Part shown: piece by piece, positions 386 to 16,712 of the stretch
Layout of the letters: every line of letters begins with the position of its first letter
Position numbering within the stretch: position 1 is the first letter of the stretch
Virus record (IMG/VR): IMGVR_UViG_2531839179_000028
Source of the DNA: a virus
Lineage: Duplodnaviria; Heunggongvirae; Uroviricota; Caudoviricetes
Reading direction: 5' to 3' (one strand)
Length of the DNA stretch: 19,148 nt
Position numbers and translations under genes: made by a program
Notes under the pieces: generated by a model
Told to the model about the DNA's origin: nothing
Database searches by the model: none
Seen by the model: the letters and a program-made list of their open reading frames with translations, nothing else

Positions 386-1609
386 ATGGCGCTGTCTGAT
401 GCGTGGTTGCGTTCAGTCGTTGGAAAGGAACGTGATAAGGTTTTGGTTAAATCCGATCGTGATGGTCTGTCTGTCAGAGTATCACCGAAAGGTCGCGTAG
501 TGTTCCAATATCGTTATCAATGGGCAGGGAAAGGTGAGCGTCTTGATATCGGAACTTACCCGGCAACTGGATTAAAAGAGGCCAGAGAAGAAGTTATTCG
601 TCTCCGTGGTGAACTTGAGTCAAACCGTAATCCACGATTTGTCAAGCAGGCTGAAAAACGAAAAGCTACTGAAGCCATGACGGTAGAGTCTGTGATCCGT
701 GCCTGGTATGAAGCATATTGTGTAAAAAATAAAAAAGGTTCTGAACAGATACTCCGCTCGTTTGAGCTGCACCTGTTCTCTAAAATCGGGAATATCCCTC
801 ACGATGCAGCTACATTGCATGATTGGTTAGAAGTCCTGGAGCCTCTTAGCACTAAGACTCCAGCAATAGCAGACCGATTGCTAATTAACGCAAAGCAGGC
901 CCATGTCTGGGCGTATAAGAGAAAGCTCATTGAAACTCGCCCGCTGTCGGATATCACGGGTAAAGATATGGATATCCGTAAAGGTCAGAAGAAACGGTTT
1001 CTGACACATGATGAAATTAAAATCCTTTATGCTGCGATCGATGGTTCTCGAATGGTTCCTAAATACCGGGCCTTCATTAAGCTATTGCTGCATTTTGGCT
1101 GCCGTAGTTCAGAGCTAATTACTGCCAGGGTGGACGATTTTGATTTCATTAATAAGGTATGGACTGTACCACCAGAACGACATAAGACTGGGGAGATAAC
1201 AGGCGAACCGCTAAAGAGGCCCATTATTGAACCGGTGGAGGAGCTTATAAAGAACGCTATCTCTATGAACAATGGTTCCGATATGCTTTTTACTAAGGAA
1301 GGAAGCAGGGAACCCGTTGGTCGAACATCATTGCAGTCGCTGCCTTACAATTTAATGCAGTACGCATGGCGGCGTTTGGGGTATCAATTCCCTCATTGGT
1401 CTCTTCATGATTTGAGGCGAACAGCACGAACAAACTTTTCTGATCTTACTGCTCCTCATATTGCAGAAATAATGCTCGGCCATAAACTGCCAGGGGTTTG
1501 GCAGGTTTATGACAAGAGCGATTATCTAGAAGAACAGCGTAAAGCCTACCAGGCGTGGTGGGAGAGGGTTGAATCGATCATTACTTGTGCTAGCTCAGAC
1601 CCCAACTGA
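386..1609 (+). CDS. int: Tyrosine-type site-specific recombinase (phage integrase)
   Basis: 407-aa ORF immediately downstream of the att junction. The C-terminal region carries the catalytic-domain hallmarks HDLRRT, HIAEIMLGH and the tyrosine in VYDKSDY. The basic N-terminus is typical of arm-binding domains in P4-like integrases. Confidence 0.9.
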   Translation: MALSDAWLRSVVGKERDKVLVKSDRDGLSVRVSPKGRVVFQYRYQWAGKGERLDIGTYPATGLKEAREEVIRLRGELESNRNPRFVKQAEKRKATEAMTVESVIRAWYEAYCVKNKKGSEQILRSFELHLFSKIGNIPHDAATLHDWLEVLEPLSTKTPAIADRLLINAKQAHVWAYKRKLIETRPLSDITGKDMDIRKGQKKRFLTHDEIKILYAAIDGSRMVPKYRAFIKLLLHFGCRSSELITARVDDFDFINKVWTVPPERHKTGEITGEPLKRPIIEPVEELIKNAISMNNGSDMLFTKEGSREPVGRTSLQSLPYNLMQYAWRRLGYQFPHWSLHDLRRTARTNFSDLTAPHIAEIMLGHKLPGVWQVYDKSDYLEEQRKAYQAWWERVESIITCASSDPN

Positions 1610-1763
1610 TAGTCTGTTTTGTCGGAATACTTACAATTTCTCATTCAAGTTAGTTAAGTGGTATTTTACAAATGGAGACAATGTAATGTCTGGTCAAAAT
1701 AACAGCGACGAGATTTGCAATTGATTAGTGGCAGGTTTGGTTCTAATAACATAGGAGTTATTG

Positions 1764-2579
1764 ATGCAGAGCGAGATAATCACGCAGAAAAATGGGAAAG
1801 GTATATTTGATCGAAAGGCTTGGTTAACAGAGTCTAAAAAACTGTATTTATCTGCGAAGCTGTTGAGAAGTGAAGGTGAGCGAAACAAAAAATTGCTTCG
1901 GGCAGCAAGTAAGAAATCTCCTATTGTTCATGAATACATCGATATCGCATCGGCAACTGATCAAACTAGCAGACTTATGTTGGGGTATGCTTTTGAAATG
2001 TTGTTAAAGTCAGCGATTCTTCTAATGAATCTCGGTGCGAGAAAAAAAGCTATTGAAAATGAGTTTTGTAATTATGGGCATAAACTTGATTGTATGGCTG
2101 TTGATTTAGGTTTGCCATTAACCGTTGACGAACTGAAGTTATTGAAAGTTGCGTCTCGAGATATAGTTTTAAATGCTCGATATCCTATTGGAATAGTGGA
2201 TGATAATAAATATATAACAGAGTTGAATGAAAGAAATATTCAGTTGGCAGATGAGAATATTTTTAGGGATATGGTCAGTCTGTATGACAAAATAAAAAGT
2301 ATAGTTGCTAAGTTTGATAATGATGTAGCGAATTGTGCAAATTTCAATATGCTTAGATTGAGTGAGTTTACTCTCTTTATGCGGAATGGTGGTGGACTAT
2401 CATCAAGAGCAATAGTTATCTTTTCGGATAAATTTCCAGAAGTCAGTAAACGCAAGTCATATTTAAAAAAAGCTATCGAAGAACATGCAGGCAAAGTGGC
2501 TTTTTTATATACTTACCGCTGGTCTTCGTTTTCATTCTTTGAAGACACAGGTAAAAAACTTATCCCGCTTGTGGAGTAG
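1764..2579 (+). CDS. Hypothetical protein, AT-rich orphan cargo gene in the integrase-proximal accessory slot
   Basis: 271-aa ORF with AGGAG (1754-1758) 5 nt upstream of ATG 1764 (a TTG at 1761 is also in frame). Codon usage is markedly AT-rich compared with the flanking integrase and early-operon genes. It is convergent with the AlpA-like gene, with a hairpin between them. I recognise no domain. Confidence 0.6.
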   Translation: MQSEIITQKNGKGIFDRKAWLTESKKLYLSAKLLRSEGERNKKLLRAASKKSPIVHEYIDIASATDQTSRLMLGYAFEMLLKSAILLMNLGARKKAIENEFCNYGHKLDCMAVDLGLPLTVDELKLLKVASRDIVLNARYPIGIVDDNKYITELNERNIQLADENIFRDMVSLYDKIKSIVAKFDNDVANCANFNMLRLSEFTLFMRNGGGLSSRAIVIFSDKFPEVSKRKSYLKKAIEEHAGKVAFLYTYRWSSFSFFEDTGKKLIPLVE

Positions 2580-2637
2580 TACAGATGAGCTGTGTCCCGT
2601 TGATTATTTTATACTTATGTTAGTAGTATCTTCTTTT

Positions 2638-2677
2638 GGCACAGAGCAGGTAGTTAGATTAGGTTTGACTCTGTGCC
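2638..2677. other. Hairpin between convergent genes (9-bp perfect stem GGCACAGAG/CTCTGTGCC, 22-nt loop); possible transcript 3'-end structure
   Basis: Perfect inverted repeat 2638-2646 / 2669-2677 in the intergenic space between the cargo gene (+) and the AlpA-like gene (-). No U-tract follows on either strand, so it is not a canonical intrinsic terminator. Confidence 0.3.
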
Positions 2678-2714
2678 ATAGTGGTGTGTCAGCTTACATC
2701 TGATCTAAGGCATA

Positions 2715-2909
2715 TTACTCAATGACTCCTGCAAACCTGTAAATCTTTTGTGATGCCCATTTATTTGGGCAGGATTTAATATCAGGATCTGGAAAGTCTG
2801 GTCTGTATTTCTTGCCAGTTCTCCGGTTTACGCTGTTCCAGCGAAGCACCGTCGATATTGAAACGCCACAGAATTCGGCGACTTGTTTTGTTGTCATTAA
2901 GTTGTTCAT
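2715..2909 (-). CDS. AlpA/excisionase-like small DNA-binding protein (putative Xis or transcriptional regulator)
   Basis: 64-aa protein with a helix-turn-helix-like segment TTKQVAEFCGVSISTVLRW typical of phage Xis/AlpA (MerR-like HTH) proteins. It is the last gene of the leftward early operon pointing toward int, and its start overlaps the stop of the upstream gene at 2909. Confidence 0.6.
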   Translation of the reverse strand: MNNLMTTKQVAEFCGVSISTVLRWNSVNRRTGKKYRPDFPDPDIKSCPNKWASQKIYRFAGVIE

Positions 2910-3520
2910 TAATTTACCTCCTGCGGCGGCTCCGGTAGCGGTATCCAGTGGGTTACATTGCGGCTCTGCGTTTCGAAGAACTCCTCACCATTGCGGACAA
3001 CATCAAAAAACTCACCGTCTCGATATTGCGCATAAAGAACGAATGCGCCATCACATAAAATAATTACGTGCTGACCGTCCTCTGGCATTCGCTCACTACA
3101 GCTTATCCAACCATCCGGAGTTACAGGAGGGTTGCCCGACAGCTTGTTCAACTTGTAAGTCTGGCTTACAGGTTCGGCACCATGAAGCATGACGGCGCGG
3201 CAGGCGTTCCAGCCTTCATCAAAGCCGACTATGCCATTATTTAAAGACGGAAGAGCATCCGGCACCACCGACACTGGCTGAGCCATATATAGCGGCTGAA
3301 CATACCAGCCCTTTGATAACCAACTGTCAGCAATGTTTTTGCTCCTGGTTATTGCCGGAATACCTAAGCCATTGTCTGAATGAAGCCACGCCACCGGCTC
3401 TGCTTCCAGTGATGCCAGAGCAATTTCATAAGCACGGCGCTCAACATTGTCTCGCACGTCTAAGCTGCCGATTCGTTCTTTGATTTCTTTAATCAGTTCC
3501 TTATCGGTGAAAGTGGTCAT
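2909..3520 (-). CDS. Phage early protein with a C-terminal DUF551-like domain
   Basis: 203-aa ORF whose C-terminus (…GQHVIILCDG…VTHWIPLPEPP) matches the DUF551 signature common in early-left operons of enterobacterial prophages. It is translationally coupled to its neighbours on both sides. Confidence 0.6.
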   Translation of the reverse strand: MTTFTDKELIKEIKERIGSLDVRDNVERRAYEIALASLEAEPVAWLHSDNGLGIPAITRSKNIADSWLSKGWYVQPLYMAQPVSVVPDALPSLNNGIVGFDEGWNACRAVMLHGAEPVSQTYKLNKLSGNPPVTPDGWISCSERMPEDGQHVIILCDGAFVLYAQYRDGEFFDVVRNGEEFFETQSRNVTHWIPLPEPPQEVN

Positions 3521-3882
3521 TATGCTCCAGCCTCCGGTGCTTTTGGCATTACTGCCCAGTGAGTGATATTGACGTTTTCAAGGTCCCCGACCTGAAATGT
3601 CCACTGCCATTCTCCGGTTTCTTTTTGTCCCCAGGTGTACCAGAGAGAACGCCAGCCAATTAGCCAGCCTTCTCCGTTAGCATCGAATAACAAAACACTT
3701 TCATTTGCTGGTGGCAGTTCAGTTGACACTGGTATTACTTTGTTTTCCTGTGCTGCACATTTAGCTTCAAGCGCATCGAATTTACGCACCAGGTATTCAG
3801 CATCTGTTTCATTTACTTTCAGATCTCGCGGTACACATCTCCCACGAAGAAACCCTTCCATTTCGAAAACATTCATGCGCAT
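3520..3882 (-). CDS. DUF551-like phage protein (YfdS-like)
   Basis: 120-aa ORF with a C-terminal …VNITHWAVMPKAPE motif (DUF551-like). It overlaps the upstream gene by 10 nt and sits in the same position as yfdS in CPS-53-type prophages (from memory). Confidence 0.55.
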   Translation of the reverse strand: MRMNVFEMEGFLRGRCVPRDLKVNETDAEYLVRKFDALEAKCAAQENKVIPVSTELPPANESVLLFDANGEGWLIGWRSLWYTWGQKETGEWQWTFQVGDLENVNITHWAVMPKAPEAGA

Positions 3883-4436
3883 TTGCGTAACTCCGATAAC
3901 TCGTTAAAGCGTTCCATAAACATCCCGTAGGCATGGCCCGGTGCCAGTGGAATCACGTTGAACATCTCTGTTGCCGGGATACCTTCCAGTACAGGCCAGA
4001 AAGAGCCATCATCAAGCCCGAGATCGCGGCGTTCGGTTGCCAGCATGATGAGATCGGCATATTTCACGGGCGTACTCATAACTGGGGGTAACCCGTATTT
4101 CTCACGGATTACGGCGTCTATTTTTTCTTCCATTTGTTTATAGTCAGGAAGAAGGCGTTTCAGTGGTGCGGGAATGTCCTGGCAATACGCTTCTGTTGCA
4201 TCATGCATTAACGCTTCAAAAGCAAATTCCTGCGGCACCAGCTGGCTGCAAAGAACCGCATGTTGGGCGACGCTGTAGAAGTGCGAAAGATGACCGGCAA
4301 AGCGACAGATATTTGAAAGGGAAACCGCGATATCGTTAATATCGATGTCGTCTTTATTTATCCTGTCATAATAAAAATGCTTCCCGGAAAAAGTTTTAAT
4401 AAATGACATTTTGTTCTCCACGTATATGCGCTGCAC
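3873..4436 (-). CDS. HD-domain phosphohydrolase (YfdR-like)
   Basis: 187-aa ORF with an H…HD metal-binding pattern (…SVAQHAVLCSQ…ALMHDATEAYCQD…) characteristic of HD-superfamily hydrolases. Its position matches yfdR of CPS-53-like prophages (from memory). Confidence 0.65.
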   Translation of the reverse strand: MQRIYVENKMSFIKTFSGKHFYYDRINKDDIDINDIAVSLSNICRFAGHLSHFYSVAQHAVLCSQLVPQEFAFEALMHDATEAYCQDIPAPLKRLLPDYKQMEEKIDAVIREKYGLPPVMSTPVKYADLIMLATERRDLGLDDGSFWPVLEGIPATEMFNVIPLAPGHAYGMFMERFNELSELRKCA

Positions 4437-4536
4437 CGCGCTGAATTCTGGTAAAAAGAATCCCTCACCATCCGGCGATTATTGAGTAAATTACGTTTCC
4501 ATAAATGCCCCCGCAGGGGCATTTGCAGTAATGAAA

Positions 4537-5361
4537 TCAGGCGGTGAAAGTACCAATAAAGGTTTCTACTTTGCTGTCCTTGAATTTCTCAACAAGCAGA
4601 TCACGAAATTCGTTAGCCATTTCTTCCTGCACCGCCTCCAGCTGAATAATGCGCAGAACCAGTACAGGACGATCGCCAGTGATAATACTGAGGCGTAATT
4701 TAAACGGACGTTCTTTCAGACCTTCAAACGGAACGCATTTAAATTCAAATGCCACTGGCATAATGTCTTTGGTCTTCGCTTCGACAGACTCCATCAGGGA
4801 GCGTTTGCCGCTGAAGTCATTATCTTCAAAATCAGCGGTCTGGTTTGCTTCAATCGTGATTTTACGGACAGCCGCAGCCGCTTTTGTTGCCTGAATAGCG
4901 TCACCATTAGCATCAAAGCCCACAAGATAGTCTGCCCAGTCTTCAATCCATTCTGCTAGTGACTTCTGGGAGTTACGCTCGCCGTTAATAGACAACAGAG
5001 CAGAGAACGGTGCTGTCTTTTTCAGTTTGAGTGTGGCGGTGTTATCTGCGTGACCTGGTTCATCAATAGTACCCAGGTTAAGCACACTGACGGCTCGCAT
5101 ATTATCGGCATCGATAAAGCAGCGGGTGCCTTCATCTGCAAGATCTTTAGAATAACGGGTAAAGTCATCGATGCTGGCAGTGGAAAGCGCACCACGGAAA
5201 CGGAAGCGATTTAAATTAAATTTTTCCAGATCATGAATGCGGAAATTCTCAGGCAATGCCACAGCATCGGCACCAATCTTACTGATAATTTCATTAACAC
5301 CCTGAGCAGAAATAAGGGCATGGATTTGATTAATTGCGGTTGCGTCTAAGTTCTGAGACAT
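4537..5361 (-). CDS. DUF2303-family phage protein (YfdQ-like)
   Basis: 274-aa ORF, the same length as yfdQ and with N-terminal similarity to it as I recall ([21 protein letters not shown]…). The start is preceded by an RBS-like GGAG. Confidence 0.6.
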
Positions 5362-8019: not shown

Positions 8020-8852
8020 ACAGTTTAACGGCAAATAACCGTTTGTCGCAACAGCTGGTGGTCAGCGTCGCTGAACACCTGTTGTTACGGCATGAATGCA
8101 GATTACCAAATCTCCTGGCTGTAAGTAACCACAGAGAACTTTACCTGACTGTGGGGGGCGAGTTGTGCAGGAACTTAACCGCTGGTTTCGTGACGGAAGA
8201 GGACTTTATGTTCATGTTATTCGTTGGGAGCCAGAAACACAGCGCGTTATCTATCTTCGCAAAGACTACCCGCATGAGTGCTTTAGTCCTTTGTGGAAAT
8301 TCAAGCGTGATTTTGTTGAGTGTGAAGGACCACCAGCACATTGATTCTGCCATTCCGGGACGTTACACTGTTCAGGCACCTTATAAAGCGGGTGCCGGGA
8401 TTGGCGTCCTGGAATTGATCAAGGCGATATATGACGCGCCAGCGTCTTTTTTATCGTCCGCATTTGCTCACATCAAAGTTATGGTGGGCTGGGCGGGGGC
8501 ATCGAAAGATGCGCCGGTTTCCTTGATCACCGGTTACGCCAACCCCGTTCAGTTCACCACCAGCGAAATTGGCGTTTCCGGTGGTGGAAGTATTTCACCG
8601 ATCAAGGAGGCTGCCATCATGGCTACTGTCCCAGCCCTCACTCGTCTGAATGATGAAGACTTACATAAACTCAGTTATGTAACAACTGCACTACGTGCTC
8701 TGCGCAAGGTAACTCTTTCGGATCCGCAGGCACATCAGGTTCTGGTAGAAACCCTTCTTAACTTGCAAGCTGAACGTATTCGTCTGGCGGATAAGGCTAA
8801 TTTTCATATTCACCGTCTCCTGAATATCAGCGGAGGGCATCGTCATGCTTAA
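8016..8852 (+). CDS. Hypothetical early-right operon protein
   Basis: 278-aa ORF. Its ATG overlaps the upstream stop (ATGA at 8016-8019), implying translational coupling. I recognise no domain. Confidence 0.45.
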   Translation: MNSLTANNRLSQQLVVSVAEHLLLRHECRLPNLLAVSNHRELYLTVGGELCRNLTAGFVTEEDFMFMLFVGSQKHSALSIFAKTTRMSALVLCGNSSVILLSVKDHQHIDSAIPGRYTVQAPYKAGAGIGVLELIKAIYDAPASFLSSAFAHIKVMVGWAGASKDAPVSLITGYANPVQFTTSEIGVSGGGSISPIKEAAIMATVPALTRLNDEDLHKLSYVTTALRALRKVTLSDPQAHQVLVETLLNLQAERIRLADKANFHIHRLLNISGGHRHA

Positions 8853-9081: not shown

Positions 9082-9830
9082 GTATGGAGCTGATGGTTAA
9101 AGCGATGAAAATTCGAGTGGGTAATCCATTGCGAAAACTGGTTCTGATCAAGCTGGCTGATAATGCCAGCGATCAGGGTGAGTGCTGGCCCAGCTACCAG
9201 CATATTGCTGACCAGTGCGAGATTAGCAAACGTTCTGTGATGAATCATATTGCGGCCCTTTGTGAGTCCGGGCTGGTAAAAAAAGTCACCCGGAAAGGTG
9301 AAAAAGGTAACTCAAGTAATATCTATCTCCTTCATCTGGATGGTGCAGGAGATTCACTAGGGGGTAGTGCAGGAGATTCACCCAGAACCAGTCACTCTTT
9401 TGAACCAGTCAAAGAACCAGTCAATGAACCAATAGCTGTTGGTGCATCTGCTGATGAGTCTGTGCGAGTTCGTTCAAACCGACCGGAATACTCTCCGGAG
9501 TTTGAGCAGGCATGGCTGGCATATCCCAAACGTACTGGTGGCAATTCAAAATCTGCAGCCTTCAAAGTCTGGAAAGCCCGTTTGAATGAGGGGGTAAACC
9601 CCGAAACCATGCTGGAAGGTGTGAAACGCTATGCGGGCTGGGTATCTGCGATGGGTAACAGCGGCACACAATTTGTGAAACAGGCTGTCACGTTCTTTGG
9701 TCCGGATCGTCATTTCGAAGAATCCTGGGAAGTTCCTGCGGTATCTGCAGCCAGACGTGAGGACCCGTACTTCAAAGCCAGTTACGACAACGTGGACTAC
9801 AGCCAGATCCCGGCAGGATTCAGGGGGTGA
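9078..9830 (+). CDS. Replication initiation protein (N-terminal winged-helix HTH, lambda O-like organiser)
   Basis: 250 aa. The N-terminus (LRKLVLIKLADNASDQGECWPSYQHIADQCEISKRSVMNHIAALCESGLVKK) resembles the HTH_36-type domain of phage replication initiators. The linker has an acidic EPV repeat encoded by DNA iterons, and a conserved C-terminal domain follows. Confidence 0.65.
   Translation: MSMELMVKAMKIRVGNPLRKLVLIKLADNASDQGECWPSYQHIADQCEISKRSVMNHIAALCESGLVKKVTRKGEKGNSSNIYLLHLDGAGDSLGGSAGDSPRTSHSFEPVKEPVNEPIAVGASADESVRVRSNRPEYSPEFEQAWLAYPKRTGGNSKSAAFKVWKARLNEGVNPETMLEGVKRYAGWVSAMGNSGTQFVKQAVTFFGPDRHFEESWEVPAVSAARREDPYFKASYDNVDYSQIPAGFRG
9343..9434 (+). repeat. Iteron-like direct repeats inside the replication initiator gene (candidate origin of replication)
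   Basis: GTGCAGGAGATTCAC occurs twice (9343-9357, 9367-9381), followed by GAACCAGTCA three times (9385-9394, 9402-9411, 9414-9423) and a degenerate copy GAACCAATA (9426-9434). Confidence 0.5.
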
Positions 9831-10321
9831 TCATGAGTCTTTTGAATGAAGTTCAGAAATTCATTGAAGCCCATCCGGGGTGTACTTCCGGAGACATTGC
9901 GGATGCTTTTGCAGGTTACTCACGGCAGCGCGTTCTGCAGTCAGCAAGCAAGTTACGTCAGAGTGGGCGTGTGGCTCACCGTTGTGAAGGGGATACACGC
10001 AGACATTTTCCGCGCCAGATAAAGATATCGCCGGAGGCGGAACGGCAACCAGTTCGTGAAACCAGACCTGTGCGCAATTTCTATGTCGGCACTAACGACC
10101 CGCGGGAGATTTTATGCCTGACCCGCCAGGCTGAAGAACTGGAGTCCAGGGGCTTATACCGTCGTGCTGCAACGGTGTGGATGGCGGCATTCCGTGAAAG
10201 CCACTCCCAGCCAGAACGAAACAATTTTCTGGCGCGTCGTGAGCAGTGTTTACGGAAAAGCAGCAAGCGCGCTGTATCGGGTGATGAGTGGTATCTGTCA
10301 GGGAATTACGTGGGGGCTTAA
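9827..10321 (+). CDS. Putative PerC-like transcriptional regulator with an N-terminal winged-helix region
   Basis: 164 aa. The C-terminal segment (…AEELESRGLYRRAATVWMAAF…) resembles the PerC/Pch family motif as I recall it. Start and stop overlap the neighbouring genes. Confidence 0.5.
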   Translation: MIMSLLNEVQKFIEAHPGCTSGDIADAFAGYSRQRVLQSASKLRQSGRVAHRCEGDTRRHFPRQIKISPEAERQPVRETRPVRNFYVGTNDPREILCLTRQAEELESRGLYRRAATVWMAAFRESHSQPERNNFLARREQCLRKSSKRAVSGDEWYLSGNYVGA

Positions 10322-10974
10322 TGAGTAATAAATATTGCCAGGAGCTGGTGGAACTGCGGAACAAACCAGCCCATGAACTGAAGGAAGTGGGCGATCAGTG
10401 GCGCACGCCGGACAACATTTTCTGGGGAATTAACACCCTGTTTGGTCCGTTTGTTCTGGATCTGTTCACTGACGGTGATAACGCCAAATGCGCTGCGTAT
10501 TACACGGCGGAAGACAACGCGCTGGCGCATGACTGGTCAGAACGCCTTGCGGAGCTTAAAGGTGCTGCCTTTGGAAATCCCCCATACAGCCGCGCCAGTC
10601 AGCATGAGGGGCAATACATCACCGGCATGCGTTACATCATGAAGCATGCCAGTGCCATGCGTGATAAGGGCGGGCGCTATGTTTTCCTGATCAAAGCTGC
10701 CACCAGCGAAGTGTGGTGGCCGGAAGATGCAGATCATATTGCTTTTATTCGCGGGCGTATTGGTTTTGAACTGCCTGCCTGGTTTATCCCGAAGGATGAG
10801 AAGCAGGTGCCGACAGGCGCTTTCTTCGCTGGTGCTATTGCTGTTTTCGACAAGACCTGGAAGGGACCGGCAATCAGCTATATCGGGCGCGATGAACTTG
10901 AGGCATGTGGTGAGGCGTTTCTGGCGCAGGTTCGCCTGCAGGCGGAAAAGCTGGTCAGGGAGATGGCGGCATGA
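10321..10974 (+). CDS. Phage Dam-type DNA N6-adenine methyltransferase
   Basis: Contains the NPPY catalytic motif (FGNPPYS), with overall organisation like phage Dam methylases. ATG 10321 overlaps the upstream stop (TAATG) and follows GGGGG. An alternative in-frame start lies at 10288. Confidence 0.8.
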   Translation: MSNKYCQELVELRNKPAHELKEVGDQWRTPDNIFWGINTLFGPFVLDLFTDGDNAKCAAYYTAEDNALAHDWSERLAELKGAAFGNPPYSRASQHEGQYITGMRYIMKHASAMRDKGGRYVFLIKAATSEVWWPEDADHIAFIRGRIGFELPAWFIPKDEKQVPTGAFFAGAIAVFDKTWKGPAISYIGRDELEACGEAFLAQVRLQAEKLVREMAA

Positions 10975-11297
10975 CGACGTTAACTCAATGCCAGCAGCAG
11001 GTGCTGGATATGCTGATTTCTTATCAGAAAGAGCGTGGCTTCCCGCCAACCAATCAGGAGGTGGCAACCATGCTGGGATACCGTTCGGTGAATGCAGCGG
11101 TGGAGCATCTTCGCGCACTGGAGAAAAAAGGCGTCATCACGATAAAGCGTGGTGTGGCCCGGGGGATCACGCTTCATACCGCGGTGAAGGACGACGACAG
11201 CGAGGCGGTCGGGATTATCCGCTCACTGCTTGCCGGTGAGGAAAACGCAAGGCTGCGTGCAACTCACTGGTTACATGAGAGAGGCCTGAAAGTATGA
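10971..11297 (+). CDS. LexA-N-terminal-domain-like DNA-binding protein (no peptidase domain)
   Basis: 108 aa. The N-terminus (LTQCQQQVLDMLISYQKERGFPPTNQEVATMLGYRSVNAAVEHLRALEKKGVI) parallels the LexA winged-helix DNA-binding domain, and no S24 domain follows. Confidence 0.7.
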   Translation: MTTLTQCQQQVLDMLISYQKERGFPPTNQEVATMLGYRSVNAAVEHLRALEKKGVITIKRGVARGITLHTAVKDDDSEAVGIIRSLLAGEENARLRATHWLHERGLKV

Positions 11298-11683
11298 AGC
11301 TGATCCTGCCTTTCCCGCCCAGCGTGAACACCTACTGGCGACACCCCAACAAAGGGGCATTTGCTGGTAAGAGCCTGATAAGCGCGGCGGGGCGAAAATT
11401 TCAGAGCGCGGCGTGCGCAGCAATAGTTGAGCAGTTACGTCGTCTGCCAAAACCAACGTCGGCACCTGCTTCAGTGGAGATCGTGTTGTTTCCTCCGGAT
11501 AACCGGATCCGCGATCTGGACAACTATAACAAGGCGCTGTTTGACGCCCTGACCCACGCGGGTGTGTGGGAAGACGACAGACAGGTGAAAAGAATGCTGG
11601 TGGAGTGGGGACCGGTTATCCCGAAAGGGAAGGTCGAGATCACTATCAGTAAGTATGAGAAACCGGCGGGTGCAGCCGCCTGA
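11294..11683 (+). CDS. rusA: RusA-family Holliday junction resolvase
   Basis: 129 aa with the RusA signature (LPFPPSVNTYWRH…DLDNYNKALFDALTHAGVWEDDRQV). Typical position in the nin region upstream of Q. Confidence 0.85.
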   Translation: MKLILPFPPSVNTYWRHPNKGAFAGKSLISAAGRKFQSAACAAIVEQLRRLPKPTSAPASVEIVLFPPDNRIRDLDNYNKALFDALTHAGVWEDDRQVKRMLVEWGPVIPKGKVEITISKYEKPAGAAA

Positions 11684-11702
11684 TTAAGAGGAGAAACGAA
11701 GT

Positions 11703-12512
11703 ATGAATAATCTGATGGTTATTGATGGTATTGAAGTTCGTCGTGATGCTTATGGGCGTTACAGCCTGAACGATCTGCACAGGGCAGCCGGGGGAGAACA
11801 AAAAAACCGCCCGAAATACTGGCTCTCCAATAAGCAAACCTGTGAATTGATTGAACAACTTTTCACCGAGGGTGGAATTCCGCCTCTGGAACAAAATCAA
11901 CCAGTTAGCGTCATTAATGGCGGAAATAACCAGGGGACGTATGTCTGCAAAGAACTGGTGTATGCCTATGCAATGTGGATCAGCCCGTCATTCCATCTGA
12001 AGGTGATCCGTACTTTCGATATGGTAACCAGCGCACCGGAAAAATTATCCGGGCAGGCTGCTGACAAGATGCAGGCTGGAGTGATTCTGCTGGACTTTAT
12101 GCGCAGGGAGTTAAACCTGTCTAACTCTTCAGTGCTTGGTGCCTGTCAGAAACTCCAGGAGGCTGTTGGCTTACCGAATCTGGCACCGCGCTATGCCATT
12201 GATGCTCCTGCTGACGCGCCTGATGGCTCAAGTCGCCCTACGCTGTCGCTGAGTGCACTGCTGAAACAGTATGGTATCCGCCTTACGGCTAATCAGGCAT
12301 ATCACCAGATGGCGAAGCTGGGGATCGTTGAACAACGCGAACGATACAGCCGTACCTCGATTAACAACATCAAAAAATTCTGGTCGCTGACAGCGAAAGG
12401 CTGCATGTTCGGCAAGAACATCACCAGTCCCGCAAATCCGCGCGAGACGCAGCCGCATTTCTTCGAATCCCGATTCCCTGAGCTGTTAAAGCTGCTCGAT
12501 ACCGTTCATTGA
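11703..12512 (+). CDS. KilA-N domain protein (antirepressor-like)
   Basis: The N-terminal ~100 aa match the KilA-N fold signature (…YSLNDLHRAAGGE…KRPKYWLSNKQT…GTYVCKELVYAYAMWISPSFHLKVI). Strong RBS AGAGGAGAAACGAAGT precedes ATG 11703. Confidence 0.75.
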   Translation: MNNLMVIDGIEVRRDAYGRYSLNDLHRAAGGEQKNRPKYWLSNKQTCELIEQLFTEGGIPPLEQNQPVSVINGGNNQGTYVCKELVYAYAMWISPSFHLKVIRTFDMVTSAPEKLSGQAADKMQAGVILLDFMRRELNLSNSSVLGACQKLQEAVGLPNLAPRYAIDAPADAPDGSSRPTLSLSALLKQYGIRLTANQAYHQMAKLGIVEQRERYSRTSINNIKKFWSLTAKGCMFGKNITSPANPRETQPHFFESRFPELLKLLDTVH

Positions 12513-12513
12513 G

Positions 12514-13509
12514 GTGACCGTGAGAGCACTACTGACCCCTGAAATTGCCCCGCGTATGGGGATCGTATTGTTCAGGCCAGGTTCAGAGCTGATGCCCCTG
12601 TTTATGCAGGGGCGTGTCCTGCTGGAGCCTGAGCCGGAACGTTATTCATCTTTCGCCAGTGGTGCCGTTCCGGCGGCATCACAACCGCTGGCGGATGATC
12701 CTGCCGTTCGGGCTGTGTTCCGCAATGAGGCAGTGATCCGTCGTGCTGGTGGCGTGGAATGTCTTGAAAGCTGGTTACTTCGTGAAAAAGGCTGCCAGTG
12801 GCCTCATTCCGACTGGCACAGCGAGAACATGACCACAATGCGACACGCGCCGGGCGCAATCCGTCTGTGCTGGCACTGTGATAACCAGCTGCGCGATCAG
12901 TTCACGGAACGGCTGGAATCAATGGCAACGGATAACTGTGCCCGCTGGGTGTTGTCTGTTGTGCGTCGGGATCTCGGTTTTGATGACAGTCACGTTGTGA
13001 CAATGCCGGAACTGTGCTGGTGGCTGATTCGTAATGACCTGGCGGATGCCTTACCGGAAAGTGCAGCCCGTAAGGCACTGAGATTACCAAAGCCTGTTGT
13101 GCCGTCTGTCACCCGGGAAAGTGACCTTGTGCCTTCGGTTCCTGCCACCAGCATCATCCAGGATAAAGCGAAAAAGGTGCTGGCGCTGAAAGTGGATCCG
13201 GAGTCGCCGGAGTCTTTTATGTTACGCCCAAAACGTCGCCGCTGGGTTAATGAAAAGTACACGCGCTGGGTTAAGACACAGCCGTGTGCATGTTGTGGAA
13301 AGCCCGCTGATGATCCCCACCACCTGATAGGTCACGGTCAGGGTGGAATGGGAACAAAAGCGCATGACCTCTTTGTGTTGCCTTTGTGCAGAAAGCATCA
13401 CGACGAGCTGCATGCGGATACCGTGGCATTTGAAGAGAAGTATGGCTCTCAGCTGGAGCTGATATTTCGTTTTATCGATCGTGCGCTGGCAATTGGCGTA
13501 TTGGCGTAA
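12514..13509 (+). CDS. DUF968-family phage protein with a C-terminal Cys/His HNH-like motif
   Basis: 331 aa. The C-terminus (…TQPCACCGKPADDPHHLIGHGQGGMGTKAHDLFVLPLCRKHHDELH…) matches the DUF968 metal-binding module common in the nin region of lambdoid prophages. Confidence 0.65.
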   Translation: MTVRALLTPEIAPRMGIVLFRPGSELMPLFMQGRVLLEPEPERYSSFASGAVPAASQPLADDPAVRAVFRNEAVIRRAGGVECLESWLLREKGCQWPHSDWHSENMTTMRHAPGAIRLCWHCDNQLRDQFTERLESMATDNCARWVLSVVRRDLGFDDSHVVTMPELCWWLIRNDLADALPESAARKALRLPKPVVPSVTRESDLVPSVPATSIIQDKAKKVLALKVDPESPESFMLRPKRRRWVNEKYTRWVKTQPCACCGKPADDPHHLIGHGQGGMGTKAHDLFVLPLCRKHHDELHADTVAFEEKYGSQLELIFRFIDRALAIGVLA

Positions 13510-13522
13510 GTGGAGAACGAGC

Positions 13523-14275
13523 ATGAACCTTGAAGCCTTACCAAAATATTACTCCCCAAAATCTCCAAAATTGAGCGATGACGCACCGGCGACAGGCTCA
13601 GGTGGTTTAACGATTACGGATGTGATGGCTGCGCAGGGGATGGTGCAGTCGAAAGCACCGCTTGGGTTTGCCTTATTCCTGGCAAAAGTTGGTGTTCAGG
13701 ATCCTCAATTTGCGATTGAAGGTCTGCTCAATTACGCGATGGCACTGGATAACCCGACATTGAACAAATTGAGTGAAGAAACCCGGTTACAGATCATCCC
13801 TTACCTTGTGAATTTTGCCTTTGCTGATTATTCCAGGTCTGCGGCAAGTAAGGCTCGCTGTGAGCATTGTGCTGGTACTGGATTTCATAATGTATTGCGC
13901 GAAGTGGTGAAACACTCCAGAAGCGGGGAATCTGTTATCAAGGAAGAGTGGGTGAAGGAACTATGTCAGCATTGTCATGGTAAGGGAGAAGTCAGCACAG
14001 CGTGCAGAGGGTGTAAGGGTAAAGGTATTGTCCTGGATGAAAAAAGGACCCGGCTTCATGGCACGCCTGTTTATAAGATTTGTGGGCGTTGCAATGGAAA
14101 CCGGTTTAGCCGTTTACCAACCACACTGGCGCGGCATCATGTCCAGAAGCTGGTACCAGACCTGACGGATTATCAGTGGTACAAAGGATATGCAGATGTC
14201 ATTGATAAACTGGTTACAAAGTGCTGGCAGGAAGAAGCATATGCAGAGATACAATTGAGAAATGTGACAAGATAA
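13523..14275 (+). CDS. Late-gene antiterminator, Q-like
   Basis: 250 aa with clustered CxxC zinc-binding motifs (CEHCAGTG…CQHCHGKG…CRGCKGKG…CGRCNG). It is the last gene before a strong terminator and the lysis cassette, the canonical Q position. GGAG sits 7 nt upstream of ATG 13523. Confidence 0.6.
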   Translation: MNLEALPKYYSPKSPKLSDDAPATGSGGLTITDVMAAQGMVQSKAPLGFALFLAKVGVQDPQFAIEGLLNYAMALDNPTLNKLSEETRLQIIPYLVNFAFADYSRSAASKARCEHCAGTGFHNVLREVVKHSRSGESVIKEEWVKELCQHCHGKGEVSTACRGCKGKGIVLDEKRTRLHGTPVYKICGRCNGNRFSRLPTTLARHHVQKLVPDLTDYQWYKGYADVIDKLVTKCWQEEAYAEIQLRNVTR

Positions 14276-14306
14276 ATGGTTTTCGCCGAAGATGACGACA
14301 TGATGC

Positions 14307-14335
14307 TTGCATTTTTCAAAAAATATGGATAAGAT
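14307..14335 (+). promoter_or_regulatory. Candidate late promoter (pR'-like) between Q and the tR'-like terminator
   Basis: TTGCAT (14307-14312), 17-nt spacer, TAAGAT (14330-14335). Weak match. The position fits the architecture of lambdoid late promoters, which sit immediately after Q. Confidence 0.3.
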
Positions 14336-14383
14336 TTTCCCAACGATGGGCTTTGTATGTCTACCGTTGATAAGATTTAAGAA

Positions 14384-14406
14384 CCCGCCACTGAGCGGGT
14401 TTTTTT
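14384..14406 (+). terminator. Intrinsic terminator (tR'-like) downstream of Q
   Basis: CCCGC-CACTGA-GCGGG hairpin followed by T7 (14400-14406). An almost identical copy occurs at 16215-16236. Confidence 0.7.
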
Positions 14407-14551
14407 GTGCCAGATGTCTCATGAAACTATGAAATGGATTGGTGCGTTAAACATTTTTTCTTATTATCTTTTAGATTTTGGAGAGATGGTTAACGTCTGT
14501 ATTCCAGAAACTCGATGATTATTTAATAAATTAGTTTCAATGATGCTTCTA

Positions 14552-15703
14552 AATAGCTGCGCGGAATAGTAGATCACTTTGAGGGAACTTAGCCCGGATT
14601 GTGCGATCTGATCAATCGCCAAATCAAAACAAATCACCAACCGGACTGAGCAATGCCGATCATAGCACCAATTTCCCGTGACGAACGACGCCTGATGCAG
14701 AAAGCCATCCATAAAACACACGATAAAAATTATGCCCGCAGACTGACTGCCATGCTGATGCTGCACCGGGGCGACCGTGTCAGCGACGTTGCCAGAACGC
14801 TCTGCTGCGCCCGTTCCTCTGTTGGACGCTGGATTAACTGGTTCACGCAGTCGGGTGTTGAGGGACTGAAATCATTACCTGCCGGGCGTGCCCGTCGCTG
14901 GCCGTTTGAGCATATCTGCACACTGTTACGTGAGCTGGTAAAACATTCTCCCGGCGACTTTGGCTACCAGCGTTCACGCTGGAGTACAGAACTGCTGGCA
15001 ATAAAAATCAATGAGATAACCGGTTGCCAGTTAAATGCCGGAACCGTTCGCCGCTGGTTGCCGTCTGCGGGGATTGTGTGGCGAAGGGCTGCGCCAACTC
15101 TGCGTATCCGTGACCCGCATAAAGATGAAAAGATGGCAGCAATCCATAAAGCACTGGACGAATGCAGCGCAGAGCATCCGGTCTTTTATGAAGATGAAGT
15201 GGATATCCATCTTCATCCCAAAATCGGTGCGGACTGGCAACTGCGCGGACAGCAAAAACGGGTGGTCACGCCGGGACAGAATGAAAAATATTATCTGGCC
15301 GGAGCGCTGCACAGCGGGACAGGTAAAGTCAGCTATGTGGGCGGCAACAGCAAAAGTTCGGCGCTGTTCATCAGCCTGCTGAAGCGGCTTAAAGCGACAT
15401 ACCGTCGGGCGAAAACCATCACGCTGATCGTGGACAACTACATTATCCACAAAAGCCGGGAAACACAGAGCTGGCTGAAGGAGAACCCGAAGTTCAGGGT
15501 CATTTATCAGCCGGTTTACTCGCCATGGGTGAATCATGTTGAACGGCTATGGCAGGCACTTCACGACACAATAACGCGTAATCATCAGTGCCGCTCAATG
15601 TGGCAACTGTTGAAAAAGTTCGCCATTTTATGGAAACCGTCAGCCCATTCCCCGGAGGCAAACATGGACTGGCAAAAGTGTAGCGGTATTAAGCGCAGCT
15701 ATT
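14552..15703 (+). mobile_element. IS630-family insertion sequence (1152 bp) with TA target-site duplication at a CTAG target
   Basis: Terminal inverted repeats AATAGCTGCGC… (14552-) and …GCGCAGCTATT (-15703). Flanking TA at 14550-14551 and 15704-15705; removing the element regenerates CTAG, the target I recall for IS630. It carries a single transposase ORF. Confidence 0.8.
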
Positions 15704-15786
15704 TAGGTTATGACTGTAATGAAAAAGGTATTAATAGCAGCGATAGGTTTTTGTTTAGTTGGTTGTGCAGGTATGAAATTACCTGA
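14653..15786 (+). CDS. IS630-family transposase with an apparent 1-nt deletion near the 3' end, causing read-through beyond the IS
   Basis: The ORF matches the IS630 transposase as I recall it through residue ~322. At the A5 run (15613-15617) one extra A would restore a frame ending …LLKKVRHFMETVSPFPGGKHGLAKV-stop at 15681-15683, inside the IS, for 343 aa. As sequenced, the frame runs across the right inverted repeat to 15786. Confidence 0.8.
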   Translation: MPIIAPISRDERRLMQKAIHKTHDKNYARRLTAMLMLHRGDRVSDVARTLCCARSSVGRWINWFTQSGVEGLKSLPAGRARRWPFEHICTLLRELVKHSPGDFGYQRSRWSTELLAIKINEITGCQLNAGTVRRWLPSAGIVWRRAAPTLRIRDPHKDEKMAAIHKALDECSAEHPVFYEDEVDIHLHPKIGADWQLRGQQKRVVTPGQNEKYYLAGALHSGTGKVSYVGGNSKSSALFISLLKRLKATYRRAKTITLIVDNYIIHKSRETQSWLKENPKFRVIYQPVYSPWVNHVERLWQALHDTITRNHQCRSMWQLLKKFAILWKPSAHSPEANMDWQKCSGIKRSYLGYDCNEKGINSSDRFLFSWLCRYEIT

Positions 15787-16135
15787 GTATTCGCAAGTTA
15801 AAGCAAGTCCGTATTATACAGATTGCCGTGCGTTTGCCATGGATGTTTATAAAAATGATGGATACAGCAAAATTGCGAAAACTACTATCCTTAGCATGGA
15901 TGATGTGAAGGCTAGATATATTGTGACAGGGTGTGTAGTTGCTATGGGGAAAAACACTGTAGAGGAAATTAAAGCTGATCTCTCTGCTAAAGGGAGTTCT
16001 TTTGGGCTTATCAGTGGAGCTTGTTCTAGTGCGGCATGTCGGGTTGATGTAGAGCAGCAAATGAACGCTTATGTACTTGGTAGTTATTATGCTGCAAATA
16101 AAAAATTCCCGGATAAAATGAAAGCAGAGTTTTAA
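15719..16135 (+). CDS. AT-rich secreted lipoprotein of unknown function (moron)
   Basis: Signal peptide with lipobox (MKKVLIAAIGFCLVGCAG). 138 aa from ATG 15719; an alternative ATG at 15710 adds MTV. Low GC compared with flanking phage genes. A terminator copy follows, and IS630 sits 13-14 bp upstream of the start. Confidence 0.6.
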   Translation: MKKVLIAAIGFCLVGCAGMKLPEYSQVKASPYYTDCRAFAMDVYKNDGYSKIAKTTILSMDDVKARYIVTGCVVAMGKNTVEEIKADLSAKGSSFGLISGACSSAACRVDVEQQMNAYVLGSYYAANKKFPDKMKAEF

Positions 16136-16214
16136 GTAAACCTTGTTTTCGATTATATGTCGAAGATAAATGTTAGTAACGGCATAATAAGTAAATATAT
16201 AGCTGTGATAGCAA

Positions 16215-16236
16215 CCCGCCACTGAGCGGGTTTTTT
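16215..16236 (+). terminator. Intrinsic terminator, second copy of the tR'-like sequence
   Basis: Identical CCCGC-CACTGA-GCGGG hairpin followed by T6. The wider stretch 16213-16240 is a near-identical direct repeat of 14382-14410. Confidence 0.65.
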
Positions 16237-16334
16237 GTACCTGTAAACTTGGTGCAGTACAGTAAACACGCTGGTGGTCGTGAATACTGACTTTTTATCT
16301 TGCTGGCTTTTTAGACAAGAGTTATTGGTATGTC

Positions 16335-16562
16335 ATGTTAACCAGAAGGGAAAAAGACATGATAAAACAGCAAGATATGACAGAAACCGCCGCCGCAGTC
16401 CTTCATTTCTTACCTGCTGACAAGTGGGTAACGCCACGCATGATGACGAGAACTACCGGAGTAAGCGAAGCCCAGTGCCAGTTAATACTGACTCAGTTAG
16501 TTCTGGCGGGTCTGGCGAAGGATAACGGCGGGTACGGGAATAAATTCAGACGCTGCCAGTAA
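16335..16562 (+). CDS. Small hypothetical protein upstream of the methyltransferase
   Basis: 75-aa ORF (alternative start at MIKQQD with a GGGA-rich upstream region). I recognise no domain, so it may be non-coding. Confidence 0.3.
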   Translation: MLTRREKDMIKQQDMTETAAAVLHFLPADKWVTPRMMTRTTGVSEAQCQLILTQLVLAGLAKDNGGYGNKFRRCQ

Positions 16563-16712
16563 TGGCGGTTTCCTGCTGTGAAAATGGGCGGCTGGTGGGT
16601 GTTGGTAGCACCTGCCAGCCATTCGCTCATGCTTACTGGTCACAAGCGAACCACGGCCCACTGCTTTAGCGCAAAAGCAGAGTGAGCCTACCAGAGTTAC
16701 GCTTACTGATCC

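Follow-up and report, generated by a model that had tools for sequence, protein, structure and literature searches.

A variable cargo gene behind the prfC-site integrase of Escherichia coli lambdoid prophages encodes a putative HEPN-like defence protein

Introduction

What kind of gene sits directly behind the integrase of an Escherichia coli lambdoid prophage, where did it come from, and might it protect its host against other phages? These questions are raised by a stretch of viral DNA of 19,148 nucleotides (nt) (IMG/VR record IMGVR_UViG_2531839179_000028, Caudoviricetes; the whole stretch is called the window below), in which an open reading frame (ORF) for a protein of 271 amino acids (aa) lies between a tyrosine integrase gene (int) and a gene for a Xis-like protein. 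A preliminary description, made from the letters of the window, had taken this ORF for undescribed defence or exclusion cargo that was acquired separately and is organised as an autonomous module. We show here that the gene is horizontally acquired, variable, integrase-proximal cargo, and that the slot which holds it, behind an integrase of the prfC site, is a genuine defence hotspot. Our comparisons further indicate that the gene was once the second of a two-gene operon, and we tentatively propose that its product is a HEPN-like protein able to act in defence by itself.

Results

We compared the window by blastn with related prophages that carry other cargo (loci are cited by our handles, L002 and so on, with coordinates in each locus). 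Homology on the left stopped at 1611-1621 and on the right restarted at 2629-2634 (at 2665 in the Dsr1 variant), so the module that holds the 271-aa gene begins just past the int stop and ends where the backbone resumes (Table 1). Between these borders the same integrase and right-hand backbone carry, in other genomes, the anti-phage sirtuin Dsr1 (FDAARGOS_1286), an AIPR (abortive infection) family protein (FAHZZU6014), a 413-aa protein of no named family (UTME-8), two unnamed genes (IR53017), a 331-aa unnamed protein on the opposite strand (S88 and APEC O1) or two small unnamed genes (ESC818); the cargo of S88 and ESC818 received no Pfam or PADLOC assignment. The module itself (1612-2628) was found in 19 of 5426 complete E. 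coli genomes, always as a single chromosomal copy behind this integrase, and we estimate, from a spread sample of the matches to 386-3600, that an integrase of more than 94% identity is present in about 600-700 of the 5426. Related prfC prophages thus share a fixed position whose content is swapped, validated defence genes included, rather than a gene conserved in all of them. The preliminary description had suspected both an accessory slot next to the integrase and a separate horizontal acquisition, and the slot comparison supports both. Its remark on base composition was also correct: the guanine-plus-cytosine (GC) content is 35.5% in the ORF, against 45.7% in int, 46.7% in the early genes (2715-5361) and 47.9% in the whole window, and the homologues likewise have 30-38% GC inside loci of 42-54%.

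This arrangement resembles the P2 and P4 hotspots (Rousset et al. 2022, PMC9122126; NAR 2026, PMC13586616), in which a fixed slot also holds swapped cargo with validated systems, except that the host element here is a lambdoid prophage at prfC. Supplementary tables aside, the newly named P4-hotspot systems of the latter paper include no obvious match to the 271-aa protein. Our literature search found no paper describing a prfC-site hotspot, and WP_001190315 was not found in it either. As a side observation, the other cargo genes of this slot (L002 3976-4971, L003 3710-4686, L024 1812-2968 and L025 2909-4150) are additional defence candidates. In the prophage of ETEC-2265 (L048, 2792-4011), the same int and cargo are followed by a different early region, in which small unnamed genes and a PAPS reductase-like gene replace DUF551/YfdS. 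Because the same int and cargo are there joined to another early region, the cargo probably travels with int through mosaic recombination.

None of the curated family collections searched (Pfam, PADLOC, PHROGs and NCBIfam) names the window protein, and PADLOC-DB v2.0.0 (2023) gave only weak partial matches, to a type II restriction endonuclease model (E 0.0012 over 40 aa) and to PDC-S19 (E 0.0067 over 32 aa). Its close homologues form 31 clusters of about 271 aa, all from Enterobacterales and all labelled hypothetical. A profile search of 1.84 billion representative proteins returned 185 clusters (50% identity) at E <= 0.001, the majority of them full-length and 260-300 aa long; among ten clusters that we looked up, one came from Shewanella, and the sole name in any source was "hypothetical protein." A search with the wide alignment had two more distant members among the matches listed, and a degenerate DNA pattern for GYAxEMxLKAG had no match in viral contigs. 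The N-terminus of the protein, MQSEIITQKNGKGIF, is conserved across homologues.

An AlphaFold2 model built with 22 homologues (predicted local distance difference test 83.9, predicted template modelling score 0.82) divides the protein into two domains, one helical (about aa 17-185) and the other small and of beta/alpha type (about aa 196-268). The helical domain is modelled as a four-helix up-and-down bundle with HEPN topology. Foldseek, run with the full model against the Protein Data Bank (PDB), gave no match at E <= 0.001. When 149 relatives were scanned singly, 12 of them matched the HEPN family PF05168 (E up to 1, best 6e-4) and every other Pfam family had at most three matching relatives, which makes PF05168 the only recurrent Pfam signal among the relatives. 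One of these matches spans the region from H106 to the RYP stretch; the two whose scores were shown lie below the gathering threshold. Taken together, model and relatives suggest that the N-terminal domain is a divergent, non-canonical HEPN-like fold of the PF05168/AF0298 ("HEPN-T") kind (PDB 2hsb, 1ufb, 1wol and 1wwp). The preliminary description had recognised no domain; this holds as far as curated families go, and at the level of the fold it was mistaken.

The residues that the family keeps point in the same direction. Counted over 138-139 relatives of 17-58% identity, E78 is conserved in 137/138, K82 in 139/139, H106 in 138/139, R139 in 133/139 (K in five others), and Y140 and P141 in 138/139 each; W20 is kept in 122/124. 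The mean column identity of the family is only 12-20%, and still these polar residues are near-invariant; the window protein has kept every one of the family-invariant positions. E78-MLL-K82 forms an Ex3[KR] motif, which is common in HEPN families (Anantharaman et al., PMC3710099). Nowhere in the 271 aa does an H follow an R at a spacing of 4-6, no conserved H follows R139, and D147 is not conserved across the wide family. The absence of the canonical HEPN Rx4-6H motif had been noted before and is literally true, but it misleads, since the fold appears to be of a HEPN type that lacks this motif. In AF0298-type HEPN-T proteins and in AbiV, the motif H is lost, the R is kept and a second conserved H lies N-terminal of it, as a possible alternative active site (PMC3710099). 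The 271-aa family shows the same residue logic: Ex3[KR] present, R139 kept, the motif H lost and a second H (H106) on the N-terminal side. The C-terminal ~80 residues have conserved positions of their own (R207, G209, G210, R215 and W253) and no recognisable fold.

The missing Rx4-6H motif also invites another interpretation, namely that the HEPN-like domain binds nucleotides or RNA without being catalytic, like the HEPN domain of sacsin or the substrate-binding domains of nucleotidyltransferases, and that the gene is a moron with a role outside defence, for example in regulation or in lysogenic conversion. Where the motif is lacking, HEPN domains are indeed often regarded as inactive binders (PMC3710099). 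However, exactly the residue pattern seen here is named as a possible alternative active site in that same survey (Anantharaman et al.), no locus has an adjacent nucleotidyltransferase gene, and defence genes dominate both the slot and the neighbourhoods of the relatives. We therefore regard a purely binding, non-defence role as quite unlikely.

The neighbourhoods of the nearest relatives suggest where the E. coli gene came from. In every locus with a 74-80% identical homologue (L004-L010 and L035-L038, from Klebsiella, Enterobacter and metagenomes), an Mrr_cat gene lies 41 nt upstream on the same strand; in every E. coli-type copy it is missing. The Mrr_cat protein scores above the Pfam threshold and keeps plausible PD-(D/E)xK residues (VDVLV and IDCK). 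Alignment to the Klebsiella island L006 locates the difference: window 1734-2593 is 83% identical in DNA to L006 7970-8830, window 1613-1667 is 87% identical to L006 6968-7022 (88% for 1613-1664), upstream of a 302-aa Mrr_cat gene, and that gene is located between the two matching stretches. The window keeps the Mrr_cat leader, the start codon and the first six codons (MSGQNN against MAGQDK), which now open a vestigial mini-ORF (Table 1). The last codons and stop of this mini-ORF align, less certainly, to the 3' end of the Mrr_cat gene (about 71% identity). The variants S7N and D8N occur in it among near-identical E. coli copies, so that it looks unconstrained. Because the start codons are retained, a deletion in the E. 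coli lineage explains the scar better than an insertion elsewhere. Judging from these alignments, the E. coli prophage gene is the remainder of a two-gene operon, Mrr_cat nuclease first and 271-aa gene second, after loss of the nuclease gene. As a side observation on L006, an Abi_alpha gene (9193-9984) and an unnamed 214-aa gene (10257-10901) lie beside the operon; this int/AlpA/DUF927 island is inserted at ssrA, and its variable region looks like a multi-system defence hotspot of a satellite-like element.

If the partner was lost, has the remaining gene been under selection since? All sampled E. coli copies have the same deletion scar, so the differences between their alleles would have arisen after the deletion. 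Of the two most divergent alleles, L030 has 8 synonymous and 5 non-synonymous changes relative to the window and L048 has 7 and 4, with every non-synonymous change at a non-conserved position. For these small counts, the post-deletion ratio of non-synonymous to synonymous rates (omega, dN/dS) is about 0.17 (P = 0.0017 against the neutral expectation), on the assumption of a single deletion event and no later recombination; between genera, dN/dS is 0.11-0.18. The purifying selection after the deletion, together with the intact invariant residues, favours a function that the 271-aa gene keeps without its partner.

It could be argued instead that the gene no longer has a function and is a leftover in decay, carried along between int and the rest of the prophage. 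Its partner gene is deleted, the gene is rare, its dN/dS on the E. coli branch is slightly higher (about 0.19 against 0.10-0.14), and one IMG/VR allele (L031 1379-2191, UViG_2529292985_000030) has a W20* nonsense change and S131F in an otherwise near-identical gene. Against this, the ORF is intact in 19/19 complete genomes, from hosts on several continents, the conserved residues are all retained, and the post-deletion substitutions are skewed to synonymous ones, as given above. Simple decay therefore seems to us very improbable.

Other branches of the family have another partner or none. A second clade of 51-53% identity (L015, L039 and L044-L046; hereafter clade B) has a different upstream gene, for a protein of 232-242 aa (for example, L015 7301-7999 and L044 5266-5994), which ends 1-6 nt before the homologue starts. 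This clade-B partner has an invariant LNRHAFAHGRQ, resembling a canonical Rx4H motif, before its final hydrophobic helix; neither Pfam, PDB sequences nor hhalign against the 271-aa family gave support for its being a HEPN protein. We tentatively call it HEPN-like on the strength of the motif. In about half of the distinct contexts no tightly coupled partner is present. The homologue follows directly after an integrase in L017, lies 77 nt past brxL of a BREX system in L023, is near a reverse transcriptase and a KAP NTPase in L020, and is flanked by housekeeping genes in L022. In the partnered locus of the Klebsiella island it stands between Mrr_cat and Abi_alpha. Several further genes recur near family members. 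A 306-322-aa TPR and SEC-C protein adjoins a 24-27% identical relative, once downstream and once upstream (L018 1084-2052 and L019 1717-2637), with a DUF4276 gene near the relative in L019. A DUF8209 and DUF1493 pair (in Serratia, DUF1493 alone) recurs no more than 1-2 kb away from family members, with side and strand differing between loci (L011 6841-7607, L017 9037-9821 and L016 6752-7078), and may be further hotspot cargo.

These neighbourhoods bear on the strongest competing explanation, in which the 271-aa protein serves as a conserved, non-toxic sensor, regulator or antitoxin alongside a swappable upstream nuclease effector: the Mrr_cat DNase in one clade and the Rx4H-like protein in the other. 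The effector would be deleted in the window, and the protein would have no defence activity of its own; it might persist for a secondary role, for example neutralising incoming cognate toxins. This explanation accounts for the Mrr_cat gene in every 74-80% homologue locus and in no E. coli copy, for the leader and first codons retained at 1613-1702, and for the second clade with its different abutting gene and invariant LNRHAFAHGRQ. Loss of a toxic effector with the partner kept is the viable direction of decay, and Mrr_cat is 93-94% conserved where its partner is only about 85% conserved, which fits a partner that carries specificity. A toxin-first gene order is also found in the HEPN systems rnlAB and lsoAB. 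On the other side, about half of the contexts have no coupled partner, purifying selection persisted past the deletion, and the near-invariant E, K, H and R-Y-P look more like the site of an enzyme or for a ligand than like an antitoxin that simply binds; the clade-B partner, moreover, is HEPN-like by its motif, which Pfam, PDB sequences and hhalign do not back. We consider an orphaned partner of this kind somewhat unlikely, though by no means far-fetched.

The deletion also changes how the surroundings of the gene are to be read. The region 1610-1760, which the preliminary description had credited to the gene as its own upstream region, appears to consist of leader plus the vestige of the deleted upstream gene and has no + strand sigma-70-like match. 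A promoter and terminator scan of the Klebsiella operon likewise found none. Expression of the 271-aa gene by read-through from int, which has the same orientation, is possible. Folding of the leader showed nothing unusual, and a search for a ToxIN- or AbiV-type RNA antitoxin or array of repeats found no tandem or significant repeats and no Rfam family near the gene.

Downstream, the inverted repeat at 2638-2677 is real. On the + strand its folding energy is -18.5 kcal/mol (z -3.2), and on the - strand it is -17.4 kcal/mol (z -5.2), better than shuffled sequence. It does not belong to the cargo module as had been claimed, since it is kept, with most pairs maintained, in 7/7 backbones compared, whatever their cargo. 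No U-tract follows it on either strand, and the terminator scan made no call. We rejected it as terminator of the gene because it is part of the phage backbone; homology of the backbone starts again exactly at its position, which is 3' of the minus-strand xis-like gene. For the leftward operon it may serve as a 3'-end or processing structure; alternatively, it may mark the place at which cargo is exchanged. A second small hairpin lies at about 2683-2712. With the upstream region a probable remnant of the deleted Mrr_cat gene and the hairpin a part of the backbone, the picture of an autonomous module falls away.

The features of the locus are collected in Table 1. As described previously, the ORF has a strong ribosome-binding site and runs in the opposite direction to the early genes: it lies on the + strand and is convergent with the minus-strand early genes. 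The proposed integration at prfC also holds, as a second copy of the 5' end of prfC is present at bases 91-159 and genomes of identical sequence have yjjG just upstream. The gene at 386..1609 is annotated as integrase in 19 genomes of identical context, and that at 2715..2909 as "helix-turn-helix domain-containing protein" in the annotation of a sister prophage. The element is a lambdoid prophage, and the remainder of the window has YfdS/R/Q/P-like, repressor, replication-region and lysis genes. Elsewhere in the window, two RNA elements match at Rfam gathering level, isrK at 8376-8452 (+, 64 bits) and C4 antisense RNA at 8477-8564 (+, 82 bits); these are antisense immunity elements of the P1/P7 c4 type, here within a lambdoid prophage. 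From about 9600 to 16700 the window is not colinear with its best-matching genome, MY732: its methyltransferase and lysis genes come about 1.09 kb later than those of that genome, and this shift suggests an insertion, a deletion or a mosaic segment.

Table 1. Features in and around the cargo slot (positions in the window)
Feature	Positions	Strand	Basis or remarks
Tyrosine integrase (Arm-DNA-bind_3, Phage_int_M, Phage_integrase)	386..1609	+	Left border of the hotspot
Variable cargo module, from just past the int stop to resumed backbone homology	1612..2633	+	blastn against prophages with other cargo
Predicted leader and 5' end of the deleted upstream gene	1613..1702	+	Alignment to the Klebsiella Mrr_cat locus
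Vestigial 12-codon mini-ORF, MSGQNNSDEICN followed by stop	1686..1724	+	First six codons match the Mrr_cat protein; GGAG 8 nt upstream
Shine-Dalgarno sequence AGGAG	1753..1757	+	6-nt spacer to the ATG; also kept at the Klebsiella homologue locus
271-aa ORF, start ATG	1764..2579 (stop included)	+	Predicted N-terminal non-canonical HEPN-like helical domain and small alpha/beta C-terminal domain
Codons of the candidate catalytic or ligand-binding constellation E78-x3-K82, H106, R139-Y140-P141	1995..2186	+	Conservation in relatives
Conserved backbone hairpin, right border of the hotspot	2638..2677		9-bp perfect stem
Xis-like small helix-turn-helix protein	2715..2909	-	Weak HTH_17/MerR matches; first backbone gene right of the hotspot

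Discussion

Based on these findings, we propose a tentative mechanism for the 271-aa protein, to which we give slightly more doubt than belief: it may be a latent HEPN-type effector that acts alone and aborts or slows a superinfecting phage, and thus a putative defence protein. The effector would be inactive until infection, perhaps through its C-terminal domain. Once triggered, it would cut RNA through an alternative site made of H106, R139, E78 and K82, and the RNA damage would abort or slow replication of the superinfecting phage. Where an upstream nuclease is present, it would be an accessory or second effector. Competence to act alone is suggested by the uncoupled contexts, by the intact invariant residues and by the omega of about 0.17 after the deletion. 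A role in defence is suggested because Dsr1 and AIPR share the slot and because relatives lie beside BREX, beside a reverse transcriptase and KAP NTPase, and beside Mrr_cat and Abi_alpha.

A precedent for a single protein doing both jobs is HepS of the Salmonella prophage Gifsy-1, a HEPN protein that detects an infection and also aborts it (PMC13043305), and this precedent supports the solo reading. Like the 271-aa protein, HepS is a solo, prophage-encoded HEPN-fold protein in an accessory slot with no obligatory partner, which makes it the best functional precedent that we have. However, HepS has a canonical R100-x4-H105 site, and the homologue set described for it was restricted to proteins of <=250 aa (PMC13043305), whereas the 271-aa protein has no RX4-6H. 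No HepS-like match appeared in our PDB sequence and fold searches; STM14_3211 was compared by its description.

Several points weigh against the solo effector. The nearest relatives all have an upstream nuclease and the second clade has another partner, and a role as partner, sensor or antitoxin fits this at least equally well. The window protein itself has no HEPN/PF05168 match in Pfam at E up to 1, phmmer and profile searches of PDB sequences gave no match, and tblastn did not find the gene in phage and plasmid collections. That E78, K82, H106 and R139 cluster in space is assumed. The scan of 1500-3000 found no + strand sigma-70-like promoter and no terminator-like site, and one sampled allele, L031, carries the nonsense change given above. 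To our knowledge, RNase activity has never been demonstrated for a HEPN protein of this arginine and alternative-histidine type, and the alternative H/R/E/K site, predicted since 2013, has never been shown to be catalytic.

A broader form of the proposal would embrace both the solo and the partnered loci. The family may represent an undescribed modular defence system, in which a core with a non-canonical HEPN-T domain and a novel C-terminal domain is combined with interchangeable upstream nucleases and also works alone through its H/R/E/K site. The partners would be the Mrr_cat DNase, the HEPN-like protein with a canonical motif and, in distant relatives, perhaps the TPR and SEC-C proteins; the copy in the E. 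coli prophage would be a "minimised" form that arose naturally and that selection has maintained. As a whole, this system is a bolder supposition, and we hold it to be unlikely.

Among known HEPN systems, the 271-aa protein is nearest to the PF05168/AF0298 group and is set apart from it by its C-terminal domain, its length and its operon partners. It is about twice as long as HEPN-T proteins, has extra helices and an 80-aa C-terminal alpha/beta domain, and falls below the Pfam threshold. HEPN-T genes cluster with restriction-modification operons (PMC3710099); the present family sits in Enterobacterales prophage and satellite hotspots, not in MNT-HEPN pairs. In contrast to the MNT-HEPN toxin-antitoxin systems (HepT/MntA), it is not accompanied by a nucleotidyltransferase-family gene, either in the window or at any of about 20 distinct loci of homologues. 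[quoted passage not shown] It shares with the 271-aa family the absent motif H and another, conserved H, in line with its grouping with AF0298 (PMC3710099), but it lacks the C-terminal domain; HEPN_AbiV is absent from the Pfam matches listed for the window protein and its relatives, and the searches around the gene found no repeat or conserved RNA element. Finally, the restriction-coupled HEPN nucleases PrrC (with EcoprrI) and RloC recall our nearest relatives, which are likewise operonic with a restriction-like gene, the Mrr_cat gene (PD-(D/E)xK, type IV). Unlike PrrC and RloC, the 271-aa protein has neither an ABC-ATPase domain nor a canonical Rx4-6H motif, and in the window its restriction-like partner appears to be deleted.

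An unnamed HEPN-like gene in a prophage hotspot is by now a familiar theme, and the surprise in our finding is accordingly moderate. If the gene proves protective, it would be a new defence family missed by Pfam, NCBIfam, PHROGs and PADLOC (2023). It would also offer a handle on the 2013 prediction: can a second histidine make HEPN domains catalytic when Rx4-6H is missing? The family is, moreover, a natural experiment on modularity, in which the core gene occurs with Mrr_cat, with another partner, and with its partner apparently freshly deleted under purifying selection. The integrase-proximal slot at the prfC site of E. coli lambdoid prophages is a place in which further unnamed genes can be screened for defence.

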